Assembly: GCA_021156105.1 (NCBI GenBank)
Contig: JAJNBD010000007.1
Location: 52,945 to 116,944 of the forward strand
Length of the DNA stretch: 64,000 nucleotides
DNA from: Gammaproteobacteria bacterium
GTDB taxonomy: Bacteria; Pseudomonadota; Gammaproteobacteria; CAISUE01
Direction: 5' to 3'
Shown in pieces: positions 12,707-47,323 of the stretch. Made by a program: the position numbers and the translations under genes. The first letter of the stretch is position 1, and each line of letters begins with the position of its first letter. The notes below the pieces were generated by a model, which was not told where the DNA came from, searched no databases, and saw only the letters and a list, made by a program, of their open reading frames with translations.

Positions 12707-13351
12707 TTAAATAGAACTATAGGAAATCTTTAAACCCTGAAAAGCAGGATGAATACCTGCGTATAAGCTACTTTCAGCTAAATCACTTGTTGGAGCTTGA
12801 TTTTCTTTTTCGCTGGGGGATAACCTATTAATCGGAGAACCAGGCGTGAAAAAACGAGTGACATTTTTTCCAAACGTAACTGAGCGAGAAACTTGACGCT
12901 CAATCTCTTGTAAGGCATCGGTGATTTCTTTATCTGCTGAAGCTTTCATAAACTCTAATGGTTCTGGTGCGAACTTTTCGACCAATAGATCATGTAAAAA
13001 AACTAATCCCGCATAATCCAGTAATTTTTCTGGCTCTTGCTCTATCGCAGCTTCAATCTCACAATAGCTTTGGCCAAGGTAATTGTCTTGAATCGCTTGT
13101 TGGAAAATTTTTGCGCAAAAAACTTGAAATGCTAATAAACTTTTTTCAGCCGATAATGGTGAGCTATAAATTTTGTTAAGCGCTTTTAAATATTTTTCAA
13201 CTATGGCATGCGCTATTTCAGAAGACCTTTCTGCGGCATCCTCTGAGAAAAGTCTTACATTATAGCCAGAGCGTTTTGCAATCTCAGTAACTGAGGTTGA
13301 TAAAAATTGTTCGCAAAGTTTTTGAACCGTCAGCAAAGAAACTGTTTTCAT
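12707..13351 (-). CDS. hypothetical helical protein
   Basis: Consistent AT-rich third-position codon usage. No signal peptide or recognisable motif. Confidence 0.4.
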   Translation of the reverse strand: MKTVSLLTVQKLCEQFLSTSVTEIAKRSGYNVRLFSEDAAERSSEIAHAIVEKYLKALNKIYSSPLSAEKSLLAFQVFCAKIFQQAIQDNYLGQSYCEIEAAIEQEPEKLLDYAGLVFLHDLLVEKFAPEPLEFMKASADKEITDALQEIERQVSRSVTFGKNVTRFFTPGSPINRLSPSEKENQAPTSDLAESSLYAGIHPAFQGLKISYSSI

Positions 13352-13400
13352 GTTTATTATTTCGCTTTTTGATGAAAGGGGTTAAATTGTTAAAATGAAT

Positions 13401-14294
13401 TTAATAACCAAAGTGAAACCTTCTATTGGGAACAATTTCAGCGTCGGGCACTTGTAAAGTCTGTTGCTTTATTCGATCAATCTTTATTTGAACATCCGGT
13501 TTTATTGCTATCAGCGTGTCTAATAAAGGTTTGTATTCTTCTCGCAGAATAAATTGATTAAGAGCCTCATTATTGACTAGTCCTAAGAGACATTGTTCAG
13601 CAATAAGTGTCAGTTCTTCCTGGGTAAAATCTGCCTCTTTACCGCCAACAACGGCTAAAGCATAAACAACTAGATAACGCGTTAAAATATTTAACCGGTC
13701 AGAAATAACCTCTAGGGCTCGAAAATTAACTTCTTTTAACTGTTTTAAACTTGCCAAAAAAACTGCGGCCTTAACGGATAAATCGACAAATAACTTCTCA
13801 GCTCTATCATGTGTGAGTTCTCTTATAAAAGTATTCACAAGCAATTCTAGCTCTCCTTTGCCGGCTAAAAATGTTGCTTGCGCTTTTAGCATTTGTAGGT
13901 TAGCCTCAAGAAAGACAATTAACTTTTGATAATGCTGAGAAGAATTAAGTGGTTCTAAAGCAATTTTTTCATAAATAATCTTTGCAAACTCACACTTCAT
14001 TTTTGTCCACTTAACATTACGTGAAGCGTGCTTAATGCGACTAAAAATACCTTCAATTGGACTTTGCGCCCAAGGCAAAGGGGATGAAGGAAAATGAGCA
14101 TTTGCCCTAAAAGAAGATGGCGAAATACTGCTAGCGGAGACGTTGTCTTGGCTAATAGCGCTATTGCTATCAATAGCATCGTAGTCTATTAGGACGGTAA
14201 AAGCCTCTTGCGTAATAACCGGGAGCTTTTGTCCACGCTCTTGTAAATATTTAGCCAAAGCGGCAAGCGCATATTCTTTAGAAAATTTTGGCAT
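13401..14294 (-). CDS. hypothetical helical protein (effector candidate)
   Basis: 297 aa, all-helical. Probably co-transcribed with the 12707 ORF. Confidence 0.4.
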   Translation of the reverse strand: MPKFSKEYALAALAKYLQERGQKLPVITQEAFTVLIDYDAIDSNSAISQDNVSASSISPSSFRANAHFPSSPLPWAQSPIEGIFSRIKHASRNVKWTKMKCEFAKIIYEKIALEPLNSSQHYQKLIVFLEANLQMLKAQATFLAGKGELELLVNTFIRELTHDRAEKLFVDLSVKAAVFLASLKQLKEVNFRALEVISDRLNILTRYLVVYALAVVGGKEADFTQEELTLIAEQCLLGLVNNEALNQFILREEYKPLLDTLIAIKPDVQIKIDRIKQQTLQVPDAEIVPNRRFHFGY

Positions 14295-14456
14295 AAGTTA
14301 TTATTATTTTAGATATTATTGATGCCAAACATTATACAGGCCTAATATTAAGGCTTTATTAAGCGATTTAAATATGAGAAATGCGTACCTTTGCAGGGAC
14401 AAAATTATTTCAGGTTTGATCAAATGGCTATTTCAACATTAATCTTAGAGCCATCA

Positions 14457-14873
14457 TTAGTGGACTTTAAACTTGCATAACGCTATATCTGCATTTTTAC
14501 AATCTTCTTCATCATTGTATACAGTACTCTGCGACCAGGAGCCCGTATCTGGTGTTAATTCTTGAGCAGCATCAAGTAATGCTACGGCTTCTTTTTGACC
14601 TTTTTCTGGAAATAATCTATTTAATGTATAGAGGCAATTCCCATGGACATCAACCGCGGGAGTTTTATTTGCACGGGCGCCTGCAAAATAATAACGACCA
14701 TCTTTTAAGCCTGCCTGAAAAGCAATATTCCAGCCTGACAAAGCTTTAATTGGGATACAAACTGAACGGCTACAATCAACCTCATCAACCGGACATTGCG
14801 TTGTACTTGCCACTGCATTAATGGAAAAAATACAAGATAACAAACCCAGACAAAAAACTTTTTTAAATAACAT
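14457..14873 (-). CDS. small secreted Cys-containing protein
   Basis: Signal peptide. 8 Cys in a 115-aa mature part. Confidence 0.4.
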   Translation of the reverse strand: MLFKKVFCLGLLSCIFSINAVASTTQCPVDEVDCSRSVCIPIKALSGWNIAFQAGLKDGRYYFAGARANKTPAVDVHGNCLYTLNRLFPEKGQKEAVALLDAAQELTPDTGSWSQSTVYNDEEDCKNADIALCKFKVH

Positions 14874-17012: not shown

Positions 17013-18137
<1,125 letters not shown>

Positions 18138-18404
18138 TTATGAGATAACTTAAATTATTAAGTACGTATTTTTAGAGAAGCGTAAGAATTTTCCTTCTGC
18201 AAGGGACAAAATTTAGCGCCATTCTCGCGAAAGCAGGAATCCAGGGTTGCGAGGATAGCTTTAGGGTAAAGTTATGCACATTTAAAAAAAACAAAAGAAA
18301 AAAATTTTAAGAAAAACAACAACAGGGAACATTTTTTGTGGTAAATAACCTATCTTATTGATTATTTATAGTTTATTTTTGATTGATTATTTGCCAACCA
18401 CTCC

Positions 18405-18485
18405 ACTTGACCCGCCCATTTCATAAGGCTTCGCGAAGCTTTACCAAGGTTTTTCCACAAAGTTATCCACAGATTTTGTGAGTAA
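18405..18485 (+). repeat. DnaA-box cluster element, copy 1
   Basis: TTGACC...TAAGGCT, then TTTTCCACA-AAG-TTATCCACA, and an inverted TTACTCACA. Confidence 0.6.
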
Positions 18486-18718
18486 GTTCTTCCCTGTTAC
18501 TAAAGTACTTGAATATAGCAAGATTAAGTTAGTGAAGTTAACATTTAAATATTCTTTACGCATCGTTTTTATCAACTTCGTAAAGTTATTCACACCGATC
18601 AAACTTGTTAAGAAAAAAATTTGGCGAAAAACAACAGACCGCTAAATAGCTTGCAGTAATTATCTTAACTGGTTGTATTTACAGGCTTTATTTTAATACG
18701 CTTATTTCTTTAGCACAC

Positions 18719-18800
18719 CACTTGACCCACGCTATTTATAAGGCTTTGCGAAGTTTTACCAAAGCTTTTCCACAAAGTTATCCACAGATTTTGTGAATAA
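18719..18800 (+). repeat. DnaA-box cluster element, copy 2
   Basis: About 85% identical to copy 1, with the same three 9-mers. Confidence 0.6.
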
Positions 18801-18905: not shown

Positions 18906-19805
18906 TTATATTGCCCCATAGTAAGACCGCCTAGGAAGTGGTGGCGTATCAGCAGCAGAGGTGTCGCCGCAACAGCAAGAAGACTTAGGCTTTTTTCCTA
19001 AAAGAGACTGTTTTTCACCATCGCCAAAGAATGTTTGCGAAGCACGATAAGTGTCAGCTAGTCTCCTTGCCATTACCTCAGAATCTTCTCTTGGAGCGCT
19101 TGGAGTACCTGCTACTTCCCCTGCAGAGTAAGTATTTCTTCCAAACCTACCAATAGTTGCATATCCAGCACCCGGAGTAGGTATAAACTGGTCAGCAATT
19201 CTGGTTTCCGGTGGAGGTGTGCTTTGTGAGCGAACATGCCCTCCGCCGCCCAACCTTGCTTTTGCATCTGCTAATCTTTGGGCAAGTAACACGGGGTGGG
19301 CCTTAAGTAACTTAACTGCATATTCATAATTTTTTTGGTTACCAGCATCATTTAATAAGCGATGAGTTTGATCAATAGCCGCATCTAACGCTTTTACTCG
19401 CTTCACTTTTTCTCCCTCAGATTTACGAGGTTTGTTAGCGATATAATCTTGAGCTGCTTTAAACAAAGCAACTAAATATTCTCGCTGGCGATCAATTTCT
19501 CGCATTGTTTTGCCAAGCTCCATATGAGTACTATGTGCTAATTTATCCTCTAGCCTCAAATTGTGAACATTTAAGCTCTGCAAACCACGAAAAGCTTCTT
19601 TCAAAGCTTTCAGCGCCTCATCAATATTTTTGTTAAAGTCATCCCAATGCGAAATGCGTTTCACACCCACAGCAAAAGCGGTATCTGAAAATTGTTTCGC
19701 CGTTTGTACAAATTGATCTAATTTTTGATTTAAACCTTCGAGCTTTTGAAGATTGAGAAGTAGAGCGTCTTTTAATTGGGTAAATGCAGCATCTGAACCA
19801 GGCAT
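18906..19805 (-). CDS. hypothetical coiled-coil protein with C-terminal Cys triplet (effector candidate)
   Basis: Helical N-domain, disordered Gly/Pro C-terminus ending KKPKSSCCCGD.... Confidence 0.45.
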   Translation of the reverse strand: MPGSDAAFTQLKDALLLNLQKLEGLNQKLDQFVQTAKQFSDTAFAVGVKRISHWDDFNKNIDEALKALKEAFRGLQSLNVHNLRLEDKLAHSTHMELGKTMREIDRQREYLVALFKAAQDYIANKPRKSEGEKVKRVKALDAAIDQTHRLLNDAGNQKNYEYAVKLLKAHPVLLAQRLADAKARLGGGGHVRSQSTPPPETRIADQFIPTPGAGYATIGRFGRNTYSAGEVAGTPSAPREDSEVMARRLADTYRASQTFFGDGEKQSLLGKKPKSSCCCGDTSAADTPPLPRRSYYGAI

Positions 19806-21954: not shown

Positions 21955-22629
21955 TTACCAATCGATACTTGCCAAACCATCTAAACTTGCAGCGTCGCTA
22001 GTCGTATTTCTAAGCGCGCCTTGCGACATTAAATAATTTTCAATTCTCCAATGCCCTCGTTTGCTCGCCCAGTCAAGCGCCGTATTATGGTGGCGTGTTT
22101 CAGTATTTAATGAAGCCCCTTGTTCAACCAGATATTGCACAATATGGTAATGACCTAATACCGAAGCCAATACCAGAGGTGTACAATGGTGCCAATTGCT
22201 ATACCATGCGGTTGGGGCATTAAAAGAGAGCAATTGTAGCAATCCTTGGAGAATCTTAGAATGTGATAAATCAGGTAAGTAGCCTATCTGAGTATCTGGA
22301 TTAACACCTAACTCAATCCCAACGGCAACACCGGCAAAGTCCCCTTCGACCACATATTTTTGCAGTACATGCTCTTTATAACCGTTTTCAGAAAAGTTCT
22401 TGCTATAAAGACTAAGCACTTCAAAAACATATCGGGATTTTTGCTTGAGCAAGCCATCTTGCAGAGAAGCTAAAATCACTTTGATTGCTGCATTTTCCGA
22501 CTGGACTAAACGGATAAAGCTGGCTGACGTGGGTAAATTGCGATAGGCTAATAGCTGCTTGATTAAAGATTGGTTGTCAGCGCTAAGCTTTGCGTTTTCT
22601 AAAGCATCGAAGAAAATTTCTAGTGACAT
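21955..22629 (-). CDS. ankyrin-repeat protein (effector candidate)
   Basis: Two clear C-terminal ANK repeats (TPLVLASVLGHYHIVQYLVEQGASLN; NTALDWASKRGHWRIENYLMSQGA). Confidence 0.65.
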   Translation of the reverse strand: MSLEIFFDALENAKLSADNQSLIKQLLAYRNLPTSASFIRLVQSENAAIKVILASLQDGLLKQKSRYVFEVLSLYSKNFSENGYKEHVLQKYVVEGDFAGVAVGIELGVNPDTQIGYLPDLSHSKILQGLLQLLSFNAPTAWYSNWHHCTPLVLASVLGHYHIVQYLVEQGASLNTETRHHNTALDWASKRGHWRIENYLMSQGALRNTTSDAASLDGLASIDW

Positions 22630-37772: not shown

Positions 37773-39530
37773 ATGGCAAAGCGCTCTTTTCTCCGTAAAA
37801 TTTTTAGTTGGAAAACACCCGCCAAGCTACTGGCGGTTGTCGGTGTTGGCGTGATTACCTTTCTTACAACATTATTCACCAAGCAAGGGCTAGCAGATTT
37901 TTTATCAAGCTATACCGCTTCATTAACTGAGCCAGCAATCCAAGTCATCTCTTGGACCACAGGTGCACTAACCGGCGTTGCTACCTTCTCACGCTTAATC
38001 GACAACAGTTGGATAAAATTAACTTTTTGGGGACAAAAACTTGATAATCAAACAGCAAGTGCTTTTACTGGCAGAATATACTTCCTGGATCTTGCTGAAA
38101 CAAAATTAAAAGGTATTGAAAAAATTGTTAACATTGTTTTCAATCAAACCACGCGCTGCCAACAAGAATTCTATAAATACGCTTTAACAATAGAACAATT
38201 AGAAGAGCTTAGCCAAAAATTAAAAAAATTGAAAAAAGAATTGAATACCATGCCAAAGTTACGTGATGAAATTCTACAATTATTATTAAATAATGAAGCC
38301 GAAGATAAAAAACACCTAGAAAAAAAAAGAAAATTACAAGCCAGGTTAAATCTTTTTATTGCTCAGCACCATAAAGCCAATAAACAACTTAATAAGCTTC
38401 AAAGTAAAATTATAAAAATCATCACTCCTCAGATAAACAGAAAACAAAAATACTTAGCATCTCGTACCGCCCCACTTCCTGCACCAATATCATCTTATCA
38501 ACAATCTCAACCACAAATAGGCGCTGGAGTGGTTGACCCTGTTGAGAACGATACTAACCATGAGATTGCTTTACACTTACCCGATCAATCCTTACGGCAA
38601 CCAGATCGACCGTTATCACTACCCAGAGTATTTAATACCTACCAATTTTCTATCGCAGAAATACCCATGGCATTATTAGCAGCTGGGGCTATTACCGCAA
38701 TCGTTGTTACATCAACAGCGATTACAGAAAGAGAGATCAAAAGTTTTTTAATGCATTACGCAAAAGAAATAGCATTACCACGTGCACTAGCTCTCGCCTG
38801 GTCAGCTGCCAGCTTTTTTGGGATTATCGCAACAACAGAAGCAGGCGCATTTTGGCATAAGTTAAGTTATTGGGGACAAATAATTGATAAAACTTTATGG
38901 AGAATTTTTACTGGTGAAAGATATTTCCTTGATAAAGTAGAAAATAAATTAACTGACGTTGAAAATCATATTAGCGTAATTTTTTCTAGAGCGAGTGACT
39001 TCTATGATATGTTCTATTCAGGAGAATTAAGTGATAGCGAGCTCAAAAAACTTAACAGCGACCTGGAAGCGTTAAAAACAACTTTAGAAACCAGACCTAC
39101 AGAACTCAGCGAAGAAATTGTCGCCCTGTTAACTCACAATGACCCTAGAGATCATCATCATTTTAAACGTAAAAAAGCTCAACAAGAAAGATTAAATTTT
39201 TTCATTATTAACGCTAGTACTATTTTTGAAAGCATTAATGAGCTGCAACAGAAAATTCTGGGCGTTTTACAACCAGAGGCAAATGCACTTGATCTTTACA
39301 CGGCAAGAACTCAGTATCTACCATTGCCCCCAGTAGAGCAACAAGCTCAAGAGGATAACGAGGTTGTGCTTAGCGGACAAGAACCAACAGCAACGCCACG
39401 AATACCGCAAAGACGAATAAATACCTATCCTCATCCGGTATTTCAAACCACAACGAGAAGCAATCCAGACCAGTCGACGCCAGCAGAAAGCGCAGATGAA
39501 ACGACTGCGCTACTGCTAAAAACATCTTAA
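37773..39530 (+). CDS. hypothetical membrane-anchored coiled-coil protein with internal tandem duplication (effector candidate)
   Basis: Two homologous ~290-aa halves, each with a TM segment, a W/YWGQxxDx and GxRYFLD motif, a coiled-coil, a [15 protein letters not shown] / [13 protein letters not shown] basic motif and a TxYLPLP tail. Confidence 0.5.
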
Positions 39531-42109
39531 ACGTCAGCAGATTCTACGGCCTCGCCAGTTTCATCACCTTCACCACCAGCATCCGCAACTTTTTCTAAGC
39601 TAACTAACTTTTCATCTTCGGCTAAGTTAATTAAACGCACACCTTGTGTGTTTCTACCAACACAAGAAATTTCTGCTATGCGCGTACGCACCATCGTTCC
39701 AGCATCAGAAATTAAGAAAACTTCATCGCTTTCTTGAACTTCTGTTGCAGCAACAACTAAGCCATTACGTTCGCTGACTTGGATAGAGATAACGCCCTGA
39801 CCACCACGGCCTGTAATGCGGTAGTCTTCAAGCTCAGTACGTTTACCATAACCATTTTCAGTGGCTGTTAAAATTGCGCCACCTTCTTTAACGACGACAA
39901 GAGAGATGACTTTCTGACTGTCTTGCAACAGCATTCCGCGCACACCATGAGCGCCACGTCCCATTTGACGGACTTTTTCTTCAGGGAAACGGATCACTTT
40001 ACCAGCATCAGAGAACAACATAACATCGCGAGTACCATCAGTTAAATCAGCACCAATAAGTACTTCACTTTCTTCTAAATCAATGGCAATAATACCCGTG
40101 CTACGAGGACGTGAAAATTCGCTCAAAGCTGTTTTTTTCACTGTTCCCGTTGAGGTTGCCATGAAGACGAAGTGCTTATCATCAAATTCTTTAACAGGTA
40201 ATATCGCGGTAATTTTTTCGTTTTCTTGTAAATTTAAAATATTCACAATTGGACGGCCACGTGAAGCGCGGCTTGCATCTGGTAATTGGTAAACTTTTAA
40301 CCAGTATACTTTACCAATATTGGAGAAACACAATAGCATATCGTGCGTATTTGCTACCCAAAGTGCTTCAATGAAATCTTCTTCTTTGGTTGCTGCTGCG
40401 CTCTTACCTTTGCCCCCACGACGCTGTGCTTGATAAGCTGAGACTGGTTGCGTTTTAATATAGCCTTCATGAGAAAGCGTAATCACCCGGTCTTCTTGTG
40501 GGATCAAATCTTCGATGGATAAATCTTCTTCAGATTCCGTGATCACGGTTTTACGGGGATCAGCAAATTCTTTTCTTACTTCTGCTAGTTCTTCTTTAAT
40601 GACTGTCATGAGACGAATAGGATCGCCCAAAATATCTAATAAATTAGCAATTTCAATTAATAAATTTTGATATTCTTCAACAATTTTTTCTTGCTCCAAA
40701 CCAGTCAAACGTTGCAAACGCATTTCAAGGATCGCATTGGCTTGTGCTGGTGACAAATAATAACCCGTCGTTTGCATGCCAAGGTTTATCGCTAAGTCTT
40801 CTGGACGAGAAGTGTGAGCATCTTTGCCTGCTTTTTCAATCAATGCTTTCACTAAGCCTGCTTCCCAAACTTCTGCCATAAGTTTTTCTTTTGCTTCGTT
40901 TGCCGTTGGCGAAGCTTTGATGATCGCAATCATTTTATCGATATTAGAAAGCGCAACCGCTAAACCTTCTAAAATATGCGCACGCTCACGCGCTTTGCGC
41001 AATTCAAAAATCGAACGACGAGTTACCACTTCACGGCGATGGCGCAAAAATGCATCTAATAATTGGCGCAGATTTAAGGTTTGGGGTTGACCATCTAATA
41101 GCGCAACGTTATTAATACCATAAACCACTTCAAGCTGAGTATTCGTATAGAGTTTGTTGATCATCACCTCTGCATTTTCACCGCGACGCAGCTCAACGAC
41201 GACTCGCATACCTTCACGGTCAGACTCATCACGCAGATGGGTAATACCTTCAACAATTTTTTCTTTTACTAATTCAGCAATACGCTCTACTAATCGTGCT
41301 TTATTGACTTGGTAAGGCAGCTCAGTAATGATGATACTTGGCTTACCATTATCTTCATCTTCCTCAACATGAACTTTGGCACGAATCCGAATACGGCCAC
41401 GGCCAGTGCGATAAGCTTCAATAATACCTGCACGGCCATTGATAATGCCTGCGGTCGGAAAATCTGGGCCAGGAATAATAGAAATTAATTCTTCAAAAGA
41501 AAGTTCAGGGGTATCGATCAAAGCAATACAAGCATCAATCAACTCACCTAAATTGTGCGGTGGCATATTGGTTGCCATACCAACAGCAATACCTGAAGAG
41601 CCATTAGCTAACAAGTTAGGAATACGAGTAGGCAGAACCGTTGGTTCTCTTTCATTACCATCATAGTTTGGCACAAAATCAACTGTTTCTTTTTCAAGAT
41701 CAGCTAAAAGCGAGTGCGTCATTTTTGCCATACGGGCTTCGGTATAACGCATAGCCGCTGGCGCATCACCATCGATTGAACCAAAGTTACCTTGACCATC
41801 TACCAGCACATAACGCAAAGAAAATGTTTGCGCCATACGCACCAAACTGTCATAAATCGCCACGTCACCATGCGGGTGATATTTTGCAATCACGTCACCG
41901 ACGATACGGGCAGACTTTTTGTAAGCTTTATTGTAATCATTTCCTAATTCATGCATAGCAAACAGAATACGACGGTGCACAGGTTTTAAACCGTCACGCG
42001 CATCAGGTAATGCACGCCCAACCAAGACGCTCATTGCATATTCTAAATAAGAATTTTTTAATTCCGTTTCAACTGAAATAGGTAAAATTTCGCGGGCGAA
42101 TCCACTCAT
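39527..42109 (-). CDS. gyrA: DNA gyrase subunit A
   Basis: [23 protein letters not shown], active-site Tyr region, C-terminal beta-pinwheel repeats and acidic tail. Start set to ATG (MSGFAREI), since the ORF-track start is TTG. Confidence 0.95.
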
Positions 42110-42387
42110 GAACAATCCCAAAAATGATCAATTTTAAAAGGTCAATTATACCATGCGATAGCAGATAAATGGGAGATTTTTGAGGAAATAATAATTCAGC
42201 TATTTGAGTAGGTTTTATCAGGTAAATAAGGTTTAGAGCATCTTCAAATCAAGGTTTATGCACATCCTAGCTAAAGCCATTGAAAATTTTCTTAGAAATA
42301 CAAAGAGGAAAAAGAGCTATTCAAAAATAAATTCATAACCAATTGATAAAATTCAAACTTATTTAGAATGGGTATTTTTCAAGCATC

Positions 42388-42470
42388 CCGCTTGACAAGC
42401 CCATGCTACAAGGGCTGCGCTCTCTTTCCCAAACGTTTTCCACAAACTTATCCACAGCTTTTGTGAGTAA
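42388..42470 (+). repeat. DnaA-box cluster element, copy 3 (upstream of gyrA)
   Basis: TTGACA...AGGGCT, then TTTTCCACA-AAC-TTATCCACA and an inverted TTACTCACA. Confidence 0.6.
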
Positions 42471-42486: not shown

Positions 42487-43731
42487 TTAAGAAATATAAC
42501 TCATACCTGGCTGCTGATACCTTACTTCATTAGCCACCAATTTTGCAGGCCTCGCCGCTGGCTTTTTAAAAATGCCAACCTGGCTAGCATCTATTGCTCT
42601 TTTTGCTCTTTTGCTAGAGTCTGCATCCATAGGCAATAAAGGGACAGGCCGCTTATATGCTTTAGTAGCTTGTTGTTGAAGCATCTCTCCTGCAATCGTC
42701 TTAATGAAGCTTGCGCTAGACAGAATTGCTTGCTCAAAGAATATTGAGGCTTCGCCTCGGTTAACCTCCACTACTTGAAAACCATGCCAAAGTAGCATTG
42801 CTTTAATAAAAGAGACCTCTGGCGTTGGCAAATAGGTATAATTTTCTAAAAATTCAACCATCTCCTTGGCTTCGCTAAGCGTAACTTTTGCAAGCTTCCT
42901 TTGAAAGCAAGTTAATAAGTTAATGAAATGGGGTAACCGCAACACATCCTCGAGTTGCTGTGCCCGCAAAGCTAATATTTGGCACAAGCGAGTACACAAT
43001 ACTTGGCTCCATAGCCTTTGCTGCACATCAAATAATAAAGTTTTTGCCCGCTCACACGCTTGAGAGAAATTGTGAGGGAAAATAGCGGGGCCTGTAAAAT
43101 AAAATACATTTAGCTTACAAAAGGTTCGTTCATGCCTATCCTCAGTAACGGATAAAGCATGCTCTGACTGCGCTTGAATAATTGACCAAACTTTAGAAGA
43201 TAAAATAATTTTTTTCTGCTGATCCAAAATGATTAAAGCCGAGTAAATGTGTGGTCTTAGCCGACAGTCTATGTCATCAACCATCGGCATCCTCCCATCA
43301 TCTATAAGCATAGCGCCACATTCTTGAAGCAGTAAAATATTCAATAGTGGTTGATGAATTTTGTAAGGCAAAACCAAAATGCTTTTAACTAACTCGAATA
43401 TTAAACCAGCAGAAATTTGCGGTGCGTCTTTTGCTTTATTCTCTAAAACTTGCAGCACCGCTGGTAACTGACTAGAAAAATTAAAATCAAGAAAATTTAT
43501 CAAAGCACCATATGCCTCATCCACACCTCGCGCGGCGTAATAAAGGCATTGCGCTTGGAGGATTTGGATTTGCGCTGCATTCAGCTCAGATGCCAGAAGA
43601 ACCTTCTTATCCTTTTTTGCTTGCTCTAATTTCAATGCAGCAATAAGTTCAAGCAAAGCTGCTTGATTTCTTTTGTCATCCCAAGGACCTTCAAGGCAAT
43701 GAAAAAAATTTGCTATCTTCTCTTTTAACAT
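42487..43731 (-). CDS. hypothetical helical protein (effector candidate)
   Basis: 414 aa, no signal peptide, no known motif. Basic C-terminus. Confidence 0.4.
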   Translation of the reverse strand: MLKEKIANFFHCLEGPWDDKRNQAALLELIAALKLEQAKKDKKVLLASELNAAQIQILQAQCLYYAARGVDEAYGALINFLDFNFSSQLPAVLQVLENKAKDAPQISAGLIFELVKSILVLPYKIHQPLLNILLLQECGAMLIDDGRMPMVDDIDCRLRPHIYSALIILDQQKKIILSSKVWSIIQAQSEHALSVTEDRHERTFCKLNVFYFTGPAIFPHNFSQACERAKTLLFDVQQRLWSQVLCTRLCQILALRAQQLEDVLRLPHFINLLTCFQRKLAKVTLSEAKEMVEFLENYTYLPTPEVSFIKAMLLWHGFQVVEVNRGEASIFFEQAILSSASFIKTIAGEMLQQQATKAYKRPVPLLPMDADSSKRAKRAIDASQVGIFKKPAARPAKLVANEVRYQQPGMSYIS

Positions 43732-43900
43732 ATTTAAGTTTTATTAGAAATTTAGGACGGCCATTTTATCATTAAGCCAGTTATTTTGCTGTGTGTGTTA
43801 GTTCATGGCAGGTAAACTTTATGTGCAACTTTTATCAAAGCACTAAGGGCACAATAATTGCTTCCTATTCTAAAATACTTTTTAACTTATTGGAGGTATT

Positions 43901-44335
43901 ATGAAAAATTTACATCTTGTATTAGCAGGTAGTTTACTTATCTCTACCAGCATGGCTTATGCAACCGTCCCTTTAGCAGCTATGAATAATAAAATTGGCC
44001 AGTGTCAATTAGGCCAGACCTGCAGTCTACCTCAAAAGACATTAGGCTATCTTGCCGTACCCATTAAAGCCAACAGTCAAAAAGAACACGCCTATGAGTG
44101 TGTTGTTCACTCCACCCAAAATAAACAACTTTATGTTGAAACTTACAGCGATGGAGATCTAACAATGGATCCAGCGGGTCAAGGCACCCTTACCTACGAT
44201 ATAGGTTTATTACGTATGAGAGCAGAGTTCCAAACACCAAACAGTAACGGAGATATTAAAGTCTTGAATGTTTTAGGCACCGGGGGCGCGACAGTGACTT
44301 GCCAGCAAACATTATTGAATCAAAATAAAGCTTGA
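43901..44335 (+). CDS. small secreted hypothetical protein
   Basis: Signal peptide (SMAYA). 4 Cys. SD GGAGG upstream. Confidence 0.45.
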   Translation: MKNLHLVLAGSLLISTSMAYATVPLAAMNNKIGQCQLGQTCSLPQKTLGYLAVPIKANSQKEHAYECVVHSTQNKQLYVETYSDGDLTMDPAGQGTLTYDIGLLRMRAEFQTPNSNGDIKVLNVLGTGGATVTCQQTLLNQNKA

Positions 44336-44388
44336 CAAAATCTTTGCCTAGGAACAGCAAAAAACTGTTCCTAGGAAAGTGCTTTAAA

Positions 44389-44730
44389 TTATGAATTAAG
44401 AAGTAACGCCAACTTACAGTTAATTAAACATTCCGCATAATCATTACCGGGTGGATTAGGACACCAGCTTGGATATTGTAAAGAATAAACCTTGCCCTTT
44501 TGCGTCGAGCAACCCATACCATAACAATTGCCTTTAGTACTCACACAAAAATTACCATAACAATCTCCATTAGCTGCCCGGCAATAATCGCCTGCACAAG
44601 CCGCTCTCACGGAATGCCCAAACGCACCGCAAGCTGCTTGGTTAAGCGATGAAGGTGGCAGAGGACTAAATTTATACTGCGAGGCACAACTAACCAATTT
44701 GCGGCGCAGCCAAACCCACAGGCGAGCCAT
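44389..44730 (-). CDS. Cys-rich small ORF (16 Cys, repeated GxCYG), doubtful
   Basis: Coding-like codon usage and an internal repeat. No signal peptide. Overlaps the def remnant in another frame. Confidence 0.25.
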   Translation of the reverse strand: MARLWVWLRRKLVSCASQYKFSPLPPSSLNQAACGAFGHSVRAACAGDYCRAANGDCYGNFCVSTKGNCYGMGCSTQKGKVYSLQYPSWCPNPPGNDYAECLINCKLALLLNS

Positions 44731-44869
44731 AAGCCCCCTGAAGAGTAGAAAAAAAATTTTTCATTTCTATGATCAAAAGTTTTGTTTTTTCATCAAGCGG
44801 AAACTGTACAGTCTGTGAAGTTTGCCTCAACACTAAGGCTCGATCAGATTGAATATCAACAAGCTTCAT
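44690..44869 (-). pseudogene. def: peptide deformylase (def) N-terminal remnant
   Basis: MKLVDIQSDRALVLRQTSQTVQFPLDEKTKLLIIEMKNFFSTLQGAYGSPVGLAAPQIG matches the Def N-terminus including motif 1 G-x-G-L-A-A-P-Q-I-G. A TAG stop follows immediately. Motifs 2 (EGCLS) and 3 (HExxH) were not found in any downstream frame. Confidence 0.5.
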
Positions 44870-45000
44870 AGGACGCCTCTTGCCTTCCCTCTTAGCCTGC
44901 TCGGCTGTTGTTTTGGTACAAGCTGCTAACACTAAAACTATCAGCAAAGTAATAATAAAAGTTTTTTTATATCAACATTTTCTCTTTCAAATCCTTACCC

Positions 45001-47163
45001 TTAACCAAGACCAGGACGAGAACGGGCACTACCCGGCAACGTTGATCGCGTACTAGTATCAGCAGGCATTGGAATTGCCGCGGCTGCTCTTTGCGCCAAA
45101 AGCCCATTACCACGTTGCATCAGCTGAGCAACACCAGAGGTAGGTTGCTGGCACGCTTCAAAAACAAGCGTTTCGTTATACTTTAGCTCTGGCAACCGTT
45201 CAGGTTGACCTTGGCAATTAATGGTAATTTTTTCCCGACAAAATGGCGAGCCAAAGCCCTTTCGAGAAAACTGCATTTTCATAATAGCTCGCTCTTTAGA
45301 TAAAGAAATTTCCTCTGGATCAAATTTAATAAGCGATTCTTCAGAGTCTGAGCGTGCTGAAAAATTTTGTGTGAAATATAAAGTTAAACTATGACATGAA
45401 TAATCTACTGCAAAAATATGAGTTAAATTTATTTTTAATTTATCTGCCGTAAAAGCTTGGTAGTATTTAGCAATACCCATTAAACCTAATTGGAAGAACG
45501 TAGTTAAATCAAGTTTAAAACGGCTCCTTTGCTCGGACGTCGTTAAAGGTTCTTCAATTTGAGTTAACAACCAAGCCCCCAGCCCTGCCATATTAACTAT
45601 ATCTGAATAAAGCTTAACCAACGGCCCCAAGTTTCTCGGAAAAACGTTCCTGCTTACAACTTCATCAATCGCCATTTCAAGTGCATTATCACGAGACATC
45701 GCAATCCTTTCTTCAAAACTCATACTACAAGCTAGCGGTGTAGATGCAATGTTTGTTAATAAATCTATTAAACGAGTATTTTCTTGAAGCGCGGCTTTCG
45801 TCACCAAACCAGTAAAAGTATATTCTGGGGAAGTAAAAAAATCTTGAGAAACTTGAGTGCTCAATTGAAAAAATCGTTTGAATTTCTCGCACTCCCTAGG
45901 GTCTTTTAATACGCTAATATATGCCTCTTGCAACTTATCTAAAATGGTCGGATCGTATTGAAGGAATTTCTCCACCACCTCAGCCATACTAAATTCTCGT
46001 AGGCCTGTTAAAAAATACCTTAAAAATGTATTTTTTTCTATTAAATTAGAAATCGCAACGGTCTCAAAGTGTTGTAATGAAAAATAATTCTTAGCAAATT
46101 TTTGTAATTCGTCATCATAAAAATTTCCTTTATCTATTTCCTGAATCTTTTCAGACAAGAATTTATAAGCGTTTTCGTCCTTTAAGCCAGCCAATTTTTC
46201 AAGCTCTTCTGCAGAAATAAAATGCCTCAAATAAACTGTATCATCAATATTTTTTTGACCAGGCTTTAAATGTTGAAACTCTGTAAATACCCGCTTCATT
46301 AACCAGAAAGAAGCTTTATTAGGAAACTGCGCCAATCTCAAACGATAAAAAAACTGTAATTTTTGTAAACATTCTTTCGAATCAGAAAAGCGCGCAAAAT
46401 AAGTAATTAACTCTGCCCTAACCTCTTCAAAATCCTTTTGTATCTTACCAAAATCTTCCTGCTTAAGATCATACCTGCTTTTTTTCCCCACAATAAAACA
46501 CTGCGCACTCGCAAAACCTTTGCCAAGCACCGAGCATAATTTGTTTAAACTGCCACAAATTTTTGATAGGGCATTTGAATCAATTTCGACATTATGGAAT
46601 TGCAGATACTGGTTAATAGCGGCAGCCAAGTCAGGGGTACTTTCTTTGACTTGATAATAAAGCTTGGCCAATATTTCGCTTTCATCCTCTGTTAAACACA
46701 TGCATGGTGTCAATAAGCGCTGCAGAAAATCTGGATATGCCAAAATAGCCGCTTGATAATTATTCTCTAAGCGTTGCAAATCTAAAAGAAGATGCGAAAT
46801 AATAGAAGATTGGTTTTTTCCTTGTAAAGCAGTTTTTATTTTCGTCAACAAATCGATTAGAAGATAAAAACCATAATGCTTTATCTGTCTCTCAGTCTTT
46901 GCCTCTTGTGCCTTGGCATTCTCACCATTTCTATACCAAGTTTCATCTACCAAAAAACTTCCGGAAGAAATATTTTTTAACTCAGGACGAGCTTCTAATA
47001 ACTTGCTAATTTTGGCAAATTCATTATTTTTTAAAGCGCTAATCGCGTCTTTAAAATCAGTAGGAAATTTATTAGAGAAAGCTAAATAATATTCGGTATT
47101 GGCATGATAATATAATGCAGCCTTCGCAAATGATTCTATCAACGTAGGATCAGAAAAAGGCAT
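45001..47163 (-). CDS. large hypothetical helical protein (effector candidate)
   Basis: 720 aa, no signal peptide. Ala/Pro/Arg-rich disordered C-terminal 40 aa. Confidence 0.45.
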   Translation of the reverse strand: MPFSDPTLIESFAKAALYYHANTEYYLAFSNKFPTDFKDAISALKNNEFAKISKLLEARPELKNISSGSFLVDETWYRNGENAKAQEAKTERQIKHYGFYLLIDLLTKIKTALQGKNQSSIISHLLLDLQRLENNYQAAILAYPDFLQRLLTPCMCLTEDESEILAKLYYQVKESTPDLAAAINQYLQFHNVEIDSNALSKICGSLNKLCSVLGKGFASAQCFIVGKKSRYDLKQEDFGKIQKDFEEVRAELITYFARFSDSKECLQKLQFFYRLRLAQFPNKASFWLMKRVFTEFQHLKPGQKNIDDTVYLRHFISAEELEKLAGLKDENAYKFLSEKIQEIDKGNFYDDELQKFAKNYFSLQHFETVAISNLIEKNTFLRYFLTGLREFSMAEVVEKFLQYDPTILDKLQEAYISVLKDPRECEKFKRFFQLSTQVSQDFFTSPEYTFTGLVTKAALQENTRLIDLLTNIASTPLACSMSFEERIAMSRDNALEMAIDEVVSRNVFPRNLGPLVKLYSDIVNMAGLGAWLLTQIEEPLTTSEQRSRFKLDLTTFFQLGLMGIAKYYQAFTADKLKINLTHIFAVDYSCHSLTLYFTQNFSARSDSEESLIKFDPEEISLSKERAIMKMQFSRKGFGSPFCREKITINCQGQPERLPELKYNETLVFEACQQPTSGVAQLMQRGNGLLAQRAAAAIPMPADTSTRSTLPGSARSRPGLG

Positions 47164-47323
47164 GGCATACCTCCAGAATAGGCTATTAAGCTAGATAGTT
47201 ATTTTTCTCTTACTCTTAGCAAAAAGCATACCACAAACTTATTAAAATCAAAAATTGGTCATAAAAGCGTATTTTTTAACCTAGCGACACCCTTAGTTAA
47301 TAATCAAACATACTTAATGCTTA

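Follow-up and report, generated by a model that had tools for sequence, protein, structure and literature searches.

The stretch of DNA analyzed here, 64,000 nucleotides of a contig from a Gammaproteobacteria bacterium (JAJNBD010000007.1; hereafter the window), carries upstream of gyrA, at positions 42388–42470, a cluster of DnaA boxes that recurs twice upstream of pheS. As judged from its sequence, each of the three copies is a non-coding module composed of four DnaA sites, one IHF-type site and one Fis-type site. It is best read as a DnaA/IHF/Fis module of the kind represented by the Escherichia coli DnaA-reactivating sequence (DARS) DARS2, with the order core–Fis–IHF–box IV. We assign a probability of approximately 0.6 to the proposal that each copy is a DARS-type nucleoprotein site, which would act on DnaA in trans and not on the neighboring genes. 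In such a role, the module is more likely to tune the timing of replication than to serve as a promoter of gyrA or pheS or as an RNA gene.

Architecture of the Repeated Element

The sequence at 42388–42470 corresponds to the description given in the original prediction, running from cttgacaagcccatgctacaagggctgcgctctctttcccaaacg into TTTTCCACA-AAC-TTATCCACA-GCTTT-TGTGAGTAA (42436–42470). The box arrangement, which was said to occur three times, is indeed present in near-identical copies at 18451–18485 (copy 1), 18766–18800 (copy 2) and 42436–42470 (copy 3). The 21-mer that spans two of the boxes, TTTTCCACAAACTTATCCACA, is found three times in the window when up to 3 mismatches are allowed (starting at 18451, 18766, and 42436) and never in 100 dinucleotide-preserving shuffles. 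A repeat search of the window returned a 55-nt family (n = 3 copies, 84–87% identity) as well as a 194-nt tandem pair with a spacing of 315 bp. The alignment also bears out the common head, with CTTGAC and AAGG(G)CT present in all three copies. One further repeat-search candidate, at 47213–47242, was rejected as a fourth copy, being a partial chance similarity.

The repeat is therefore real, but the 83 bp that were originally flagged comprise only its core part. Alignment of the three copies with the orthologous copy of a close relative gives a repeated unit of approximately 215 bp, which extends leftward to a fourth DnaA box at 42256–42264. The suggestion that the element lies equally far from gyrA and from pheS holds only approximately: 279 bp separate the start of the copy 3 element from the gyrA ATG (42109), compared with 320 or 356 bp between the equivalent point of copy 1 and the candidate pheS ATGs at 18083 and 18047, respectively. 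Both genes are encoded on the minus strand (gyrA at 39527–42109), and both identities are confirmed by Pfam. The further remark that the element lies on the strand opposite to gyrA has no meaning for double-stranded protein-binding sites.

Positions within the module are numbered from the T of TCCACA in box III (position 0), with the core spanning −3 to +31. In all three window copies, box IV is located at −182/−183, the IHF-type site at −103 and the Fis-type site at −69. The center of the Fis-type site is approximately 59 bp from box III. That of the IHF-type site is at approximately 95 bp from box III, with approximately 80 bp between it and box IV. Each module contains three DnaA boxes that match the consensus (IV, III, and II) and a box I with one mismatch, giving about 12 sites within 24 kb. 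In addition, all three copies have, 3 bp upstream of box III and head-to-tail with it, a degenerate box-like 9-mer (CTTTACCAA, TTTTACCAA, and CTTTCCCAA at 18439–18447, 18754–18762, and 42424–42432, respectively). Its conservation in other genomes is only weak, and it recalls box III′, a dispensable box that has been reported for E. coli DARS1.

Correspondence with the E. coli DARS Core

Base for base, the core has the layout of DARS1 and DARS2 of E. coli, in which box III, box II and the inverted box I are separated by 3 bp and 5 bp, respectively. This match went unnoticed in the original prediction, as did the IHF-type, Fis-type and distal-box parts. Read from NC_000913, the core of DARS1 (bioD–uvrB) is TACACA-TGG-TTATCCACA-GGAAT-AGTGGATAA, and that of DARS2 (upstream of mutH, in the rppH/ygdT–mutH intergenic region) is TTCACA-ACT-CTATCCACA-GAAAA-GGTGAATAA. 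In a DARS, boxes I and II are opposed and 5 bp apart, so that two DnaA molecules form a head-to-head dimer and ADP is released; assembly is nucleated at box II, whose sequence is the full consensus, box III is placed head-to-tail, and apo-DnaA leaves the DARS and then binds ATP (PMC6868365). In the window, boxes I and II are opposed and separated by 5 bp in all three copies, box III is head-to-tail with box II at a 3-bp gap (TTTTCCACA-AAC-TTATCCACA in copy 3), and box II is the consensus sequence TTATCCACA in every copy, as in DARS1.

E. coli DARS2 is, moreover, activated by IHF and Fis sites at defined positions, which tie it to growth phase via Fis and to the cell cycle and supercoiling via IHF (PMC4245941, PMC11724364); an overlap of a PciI site and box V has also been described (PMC11724364). 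The module carries a predicted IHF consensus site (0, 1, and 2 mismatches in copies 3, 1, and 2, respectively) and, at −69 in each copy, a predicted Fis consensus site with 1 mismatch. The E. coli DARS2 order, namely core, IHF-binding sites (IBS) 1–2 and Fis-binding sites (FBS) 2–3, is not matched. Because the order and the spacing of the accessory sites differ, the module is classified as a variant and not as a DARS2 orthologue.

The distribution of sequence differences follows these parts. The proposal that the boxes are conserved and the head has diverged agrees with the comparison of the paralogous copies, in which the core shows 91–97% identity and box IV 88–100%, compared with 50–80% for the spacer that runs from the Fis-type site to box III and 30–59% for the remaining spacers. 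The same is observed between copy 3 and its counterpart in the relative whose GyrA is 96% identical (L129): a 40-nt block over the core is invariant, and the adjacent 51-nt spacer contains 12 differences. The alignment of more copies did not bring box conservation down to that of the flanks, and the stronger constraint on the boxes than on their surroundings is also seen across at least 120 other loci.

Conservation of the Module in Other Genomes

These loci come from a scan of one genome per species with the exact pattern TCCACA-N3-TTATCCACA-N5-TGTG-NN-TAA, which matched at least 120 loci. The 120 listed loci, to which the following counts refer, were selected for near-perfect boxes and represent the best-conserved subset, mostly on contigs of metagenome-assembled genomes (MAGs). 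According to the record titles, they place the module core in more than 100 other bacterial species, mostly Gamma- and Betaproteobacteria: 17 loci are from betaproteobacterial genera, 1 is labeled Actinomycetota, and most of the others are labeled Gammaproteobacteria or gammaproteobacterial orders, with a few given only as Proteobacteria or Pseudomonadota. Cultured genera represented among them include Dyella, Duganella, Nitrosomonas and Endozoicomonas. The actinobacterial locus (L011, a MAG labeled Candidatus Planktophila lacus) has a complete module beside a HemN-like gene, as in gammaproteobacterial loci, and its label is probably the result of bin contamination.

Taking into account that the scan pattern constrains the core only, the flanks can be treated as an unbiased sample, and all three accessory parts are recovered in them. 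An exact Fis consensus is located at −69 in 50 of the 120 loci (background per position, 9e-4). When 1 mismatch is tolerated, the consensus is found between −74 and −65 in 104/120, and a control window gives 17/120. The base counts agree with the Fis logo GnnYA-W5-TRnnC, with G in 97/120 (−69), A in 100/120 (−65), T in 93/120 (−59) and C in 84/120 (−55), and the −4/+4 positions of the site are Y/R in 72–73%. For IHF, an exact consensus is present at −101 to −103 in 17 loci (background 2e-5 per position), and one with at most 1 mismatch lies between −112 and −85 in 67/120 loci versus 1/120 in the control window. An exact forward DnaA box, usually TTATGCACA, is located between −200 and −165, mostly at −183 to −179, in 73/115 loci, compared with 0/117 in a control window.

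A hidden Markov model (HMM) built from the flank alone, with the core excluded, recovers the window copies in turn. It matches copy 3 at 42251–42440 (E = 8e-4) and copy 2 at 18585–18767 (E = 5e-3), and its other matches in the 64 kb are weak and fall within copy 1 (the IHF/Fis part at 18340–18393, E = 0.59, and a second match with E = 6.7). As a negative control, 15 viral contigs that contain the core were inspected, and none of them carries the flank of IHF-type site, Fis-type site and box IV. Consequently, the flank is not a by-product of the core. About ten of the viral contigs, from IMG/VR, are related and share the three-box core TCCACATACTTATCCACAGAAACTGTGGATAA without the flank (among them L135, L136, L138, L139, L143–L146, and L148), and two others (L140 and L141) carry DnaA-box arrays that resemble phage or plasmid origins.

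Additional short motifs accompany the module in other genomes. RnTTAGC is present at +57 to +63, a fixed 26 nt after box I, in approximately 33/120 listed loci (for example L003, L042, L054, and L068); about 15 of these also have the complementary GCTAAC(T) some 38 nt further on (approximately +95 to +105), and CTTAG recurs at −23 inside the module. None of these motifs is found in the window copies.

Genomic Context

The module is intergenic in all listed loci, and its neighbors vary among unrelated contexts. Among them is priA, approximately 100 bp beyond box I in 31/120 loci and reading away from it in 30 of the 31. In 18 loci, a gene for a HemN-like radical S-adenosylmethionine protein is found on the IHF side, often with the citrate synthase gene (gltA) on the opposite one, and in 10 betaproteobacterial loci the module adjoins a divergent xseA, often with exbB; EngB and an M48 peptidase are further neighbors. 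The orientation differs with the context, the IHF side facing gyrA, pheS and xseA and the box I side facing priA, and the spacing of the parts is rigid whatever the neighboring gene. The neighbors are often genes of DNA metabolism, in raw counts priA in 31/120 loci and xseA in 10/120, in addition to gyrA here and uvrB and mutH in E. coli.

The E. coli loci's position at the uvrB and mutH promoters is not shared. The window copies are flanked by gyrA, pheS and orphan open reading frames (ORFs), and tblastn with MutH and with the N-terminal 158 residues of UvrB located neither gene near any of the listed loci. Synteny with DARS1 or DARS2 was thus rejected (0/120); it is a property of the E. coli loci and not of the mechanism.

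Among relatives, the presence of the module varies. It is found at gyrA in the relative with 96% GyrA identity, and both pheS-side copies are present in a relative whose PheS is 94% identical (L131), where they lie 1.6 kb apart with an unrelated ORF between them. At greater distance, no module was found upstream of gyrA in six relatives with GyrA identities of 74–86% (L124–L128 and L130; flanks of 4 kb for most, 1 kb for L128), nor upstream of pheS in two relatives with PheS identities of 69–74% (L132 and L133), within 1.7 and 4 kb. This variation indicates that the position of the module is evolutionarily labile and its internal geometry is not. A single MAG contributes two of the listed loci (L012 and L058).

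The genes adjacent to the copies are themselves variable. Beside copy 3, the window has a 414-aa orphan ORF (42487–43731) with no Pfam domain, which is missing in the 96% relative (L129, 2141–3989). The ORF that separates the pheS-side copies of the 94% relative is a 425-aa orphan (L131, 1863–3535), in place of which the window has its copies in tandem (18486–18585). A mobile unit made of the module and an adjacent orphan ORF was considered and rejected, since the 414-aa ORF does not occur in the 96% relative and shows no relationship to the 425-aa ORF.

With regard to the host, the window GyrA is 67–68% identical to that of Legionella species, and its closer matches (72–96%) are metagenome sequences. 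An ankyrin-repeat protein is encoded at 21955–22629 amid housekeeping genes, which are surrounded by ORFs of 110–720 aa without Pfam domains (12707–14873, 18906–19805, 37773–39530, and 42487–47163). Taken together, the ankyrin-repeat protein, the Pfam-less ORFs and the GyrA identity suggest a host-associated, uncultured relative of the Legionellales.

Table 1. Positions of the predicted modules and of their parts in the window
Copy	Feature	Position	Strand	Sequence and remarks	Basis
3 (gyrA side)	Module, box IV to box I	42256..42470	+		Alignment; flank-only HMM
3	Distal DnaA box IV	42256..42264	+	TTATGCACA, fits TTWTNCACA	Motif
3	IHF-type site	42336..42348	+	TAACCAATTGATA, perfect TAAnnnnTTGATW	Motif
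3	Fis-type site	42370..42384	.	GGGTATTTTTCAAGC, 1 mismatch to GnnYAnnnnnTRnnC	Motif
3	Core box III	42436..42444	+	TTTTCCACA	Sequence
3	Core box II	42448..42456	+	TTATCCACA, perfect consensus	Sequence
3	Core box I, inverted	42462..42470	-	TGTGAGTAA on +, TTACTCACA on -; 5 bp from box II	
1 (pheS-proximal)	Module, whole unit	18272..18485	+		Repeat search, alignment; flank-only HMM weak
1	Box IV	18272..18280	+	TTATGCACA	Motif
1	IHF-type site	18351..18363	+	TATCTTATTGATT, 1 mismatch	Motif
1	Fis-type site	18385..18399	.	GATTATTTGCCAACC, 1 mismatch	Motif
1	Core (boxes III, II, inverted I)	18451..18485	+	TTTTCCACA-AAG-TTATCCACA-GATTT-TGTGAGTAA	
2 (tandem, 315 bp right of copy 1)	Module, whole unit	18586..18800	+		Repeat search, alignment; flank-only HMM
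2	Box IV	18586..18594	+	TTATTCACA	Motif
2	IHF-type site	18666..18678	+	TAACTGGTTGTAT, degraded, 2 mismatches	Motif
2	Fis-type site	18700..18714	.	GCTTATTTCTTTAGC, 1 mismatch	Motif
2	Core	18766..18800	+	TTTTCCACA-AAG-TTATCCACA-GATTT-TGTGAATAA	

Proposed Mode of Action

The steps proposed for the module are taken over from E. coli DARS1 and DARS2, and what was computed here are the sites, their exact geometry and their conservation. ADP-DnaA would bind to the perfect-consensus box II, from which DnaA would be recruited to box III (head-to-tail, across the 3-bp gap) and to the inverted box I (head-to-head, across the 5-bp gap). The head-to-head AAA+ contact between the DnaA molecules on boxes I and II would release ADP, and the apo-DnaA would leave and rebind ATP, resulting in a larger pool of initiation-competent ATP-DnaA. 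A Fis dimer at approximately 59 bp and a sharp IHF bend at approximately 95 bp from box III would shape the complex, and the U-turn imposed by IHF could fold box IV (−183) with its bound DnaA back onto the core. The activity would then follow the growth phase through the Fis level and the supercoiling and cell-cycle state through IHF binding. By analogy with E. coli, the binding of DnaA, IHF and Fis would thus have nucleotide exchange as its outcome. The variable intergenic contexts and the positional shifts between close relatives fit a trans-acting site.

Several points weigh against this assignment. DnaA binding and nucleotide exchange are inferred, both at the module and at the 120 listed loci, which were picked for near-perfect boxes, and the accessory order that differs from E. 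coli DARS2 may make the transfer of the E. coli mechanism doubtful. The flank HMM matches box 2 and the IHF site of E. coli datA (L134, 2738–2832; E = 7e-3) and not the DARS2 flank, and because half of the module is datA-like and the activity of datA is opposite, the sign of the effect is uncertain. In the window, every Fis-type site departs from the consensus at 1 position, and copy 2 has a degraded IHF-type site. Neither fis nor dnaA is among the ORFs scanned in the 64-kb window, and ihfA is not located downstream of pheT.

Alternative Explanations

The main rival is a datA-like or purely titrating role, in which a DnaA/IHF complex would stimulate hydrolysis of the ATP bound to DnaA or sequester DnaA, thereby lowering the initiation potential. 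The succession of forward box, IHF-type site, approximately 87–97 bp, forward box and inverted box resembles the geometry of E. coli datA, the HMM match described above points in the same direction, and some 12 DnaA sites within 24 kb are consistent with titration. On the other hand, the exact three-box DARS arrangement is found here, and its best match in datA has 6 mismatches; the head-to-head pair of datA has a gap of 3 bp compared with 5 bp in the module; and the conserved Fis site is a feature of DARS2, whereas datA needs IHF and a need for Fis is not reported (PMC11724364, PMC10380432). A locus that lowers the initiation potential is therefore considered rather unlikely.

A slightly smaller probability is given to transcription control in cis, by which DnaA, IHF and Fis would regulate the promoters of gyrA and pheST here and those of priA and xseA elsewhere. 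It draws on the frequent proximity to genes of DNA metabolism noted above and on the location of E. coli DARS1 and DARS2 in the promoter regions of uvrB and mutH (PMC5835720). The more specific idea of the original prediction, a promoter module common to gyrA and pheST, is not supported. The promoter scan gives no sigma-70-like promoter at the TTGACA head, and neither promoter nor terminator scans at the modules returned anything above chance. Furthermore, gyrA has its own conserved extended −10, TGgTATAAT (42146–42151, minus strand), approximately 37 bp before the ATG; this −10 lies apart from the module, and the 96% relative has it unchanged. Relatives with GyrA identities of 74–86% or PheS identities of 69–74% lack the element in the upstream flanks that were fetched, and the same module occurs in unrelated contexts and in both orientations relative to its neighbors, with a part spacing that is rigid regardless. 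These observations also argue against control in cis in general. A secondary cis-regulatory role on neighboring DNA-metabolism genes may nevertheless exist alongside DnaA recharging.

It is improbable that the copies are pieces of a replication origin, relic or functional, whether oriC or the origin of an integrated plasmid or phage, or that they are a mobile selfish repeat. As in oriC, DnaA boxes are clustered together with IHF and Fis sites and the spacers are AT-rich, the three copies are paralogous, two of them in tandem, with positions that differ between relatives, and the core alone is found in viral contigs with box arrays. Yet the GC skew stays negative along the whole 64 kb and does not switch at either 18.5 or 42.4 kb, from which it follows that the window holds no origin or terminus. 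A candidate oriC at the tandem pair was rejected on the same basis, the gene orientation switching there and the GC skew not. No copy has dnaA, gidA or a replication-initiator gene beside it, and the oriC-type neighbors dnaA, gidA, mioC and rpmH are not adjacent to the modules, which border on gyrA, pheS and orphan ORFs. There is no Pfam-recognizable transposase nearby, terminal inverted repeats were not noticed, at least 2 copies occur in one MAG (L012 and L058), and priA and hemN/gltA are not origin contexts.

Finally, it is very improbable that the element is a repeated gene for a small RNA, as had also been suggested, which would be transcribed from the TTGACA head: the TTGAC hexamer is common to the three copies and the plus strand of copy 3 folds at z = −2.7, but the other copies give z values from −1.1 to +0.65, TTGAC is offset by 4 nt from the motif that corresponds to it in other genomes, there is neither a matching −10 nor a terminator, Rfam returns no family at gathering scores and only noise at E < 1, and RNAalifold on 117 loci (both strands, four windows) yields no conserved structure other than the trivial pairing of the inverted boxes II and I. 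An apparent AAGCC...GGCTT hairpin between the Fis-type site and the core in some loci was likewise rejected, as its arms do not covary.

Significance of the Module

Outside E. coli, the literature searched mentions no more than "similar sequences" that occupy the uvrB and mutH positions in relatives and in Vibrio (V. cholerae) (PMC6090056, PMC4245941, PMC10380432), and experimental DARS-type reactivation of DnaA is reported only for E. coli in the literature searched. The same literature, outside of which lies Fujimitsu et al. 2009, possibly listing more species, contains no description of the core–Fis–IHF–box IV arrangement or of its contexts, including that of priA. If the DARS assignment is correct, the recharging of DnaA would be common to Gamma- and Betaproteobacteria in general, relatives of Legionella among them. 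The way in which DARS2 is activated by IHF and Fis is not yet clear (PMC11724364); a natural variant with Fis beside the core and an IHF-dependent fold-back of a fourth DnaA would constrain the mechanisms of DARS2 activation. Sites and spacings are now defined as predictions for organisms without replication-control studies. For annotation, the default reading of DnaA-box clusters ahead of gyrA, pheS or priA should not be that of a promoter or an origin.

The HMM match to datA hints at a box–IHF design common to the module and datA. More tentatively than for the DARS assignment, it is conceivable that the module is a widespread, perhaps ancestral Gamma- and Betaproteobacterial device for control of the DnaA nucleotide state, which joins a datA-like half to a DARS core and of which DARS2 and datA would be rearranged or specialized descendants. 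If so, a single IHF- and Fis-dependent complex would be involved, with the distal box and the IHF bend as its datA-like half. The preferred placement before priA, xseA and gyrA (uvrB and mutH in E. coli) would reflect a coupling between the recharging of the initiator and the expression of genes for replication and repair, and the three copies in the window, one of them a tandem duplication, would represent a lineage-specific increase in dosage.

Comparison with Known DnaA-Regulating Loci

Among known systems, the module is compared first with E. coli DARS2, with which it shares an identical core layout, IHF and Fis consensus sites on the box III side, a further DnaA box approximately 185 bp away, and a non-coding, intergenic location. 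The two differ in the order of their parts: in DARS2, the core is followed by IHF at −90, Fis at −128 and an inverted distal box at −188, whereas in the module it is followed by Fis at −69, IHF at approximately −102 and a direct distal box at −183. In addition, box II has the perfect consensus in the module and reads CTATCCACA in DARS2.

E. coli DARS1 shares the three-box core with the module, including a box II of perfect consensus (PMC6868365). It precedes a DNA-repair gene, and the module often precedes genes of DNA metabolism. In contrast to the module with its predicted accessory sites, DARS1 needs neither IHF nor Fis (PMC11724364), and no synteny is shared. The DARS of plasmid ColE1, the first DnaA-reactivating sequence described, can be likened to the module by description only: it measures 70 bp and has three DnaA boxes, two of which, in the correct orientation, are essential (PMC5835720). 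It is plasmid-borne, and no flank with IHF, Fis or distal-box sites is described for it.

In E. coli datA, the IHF-dependent locus for the hydrolysis of DnaA-ATP (DDAH), box 2 (at 2745) is followed by the IBS TAACCTATTGATA (at 2810), box 3 (at 2907) and, 3 bp later, the inverted box 4. As in the module, the IHF site is flanked by DnaA boxes of the same orientation and followed by a head-to-head pair, and the start-to-start distance between the IHF site and the forward box that follows it is 97 bp in datA and approximately 99 bp in the module. Unlike the module, datA does not contain the third box of the DARS core, has the opposite biochemical outcome (PMC11724364), and also requires box 7, a box with no counterpart in the module.

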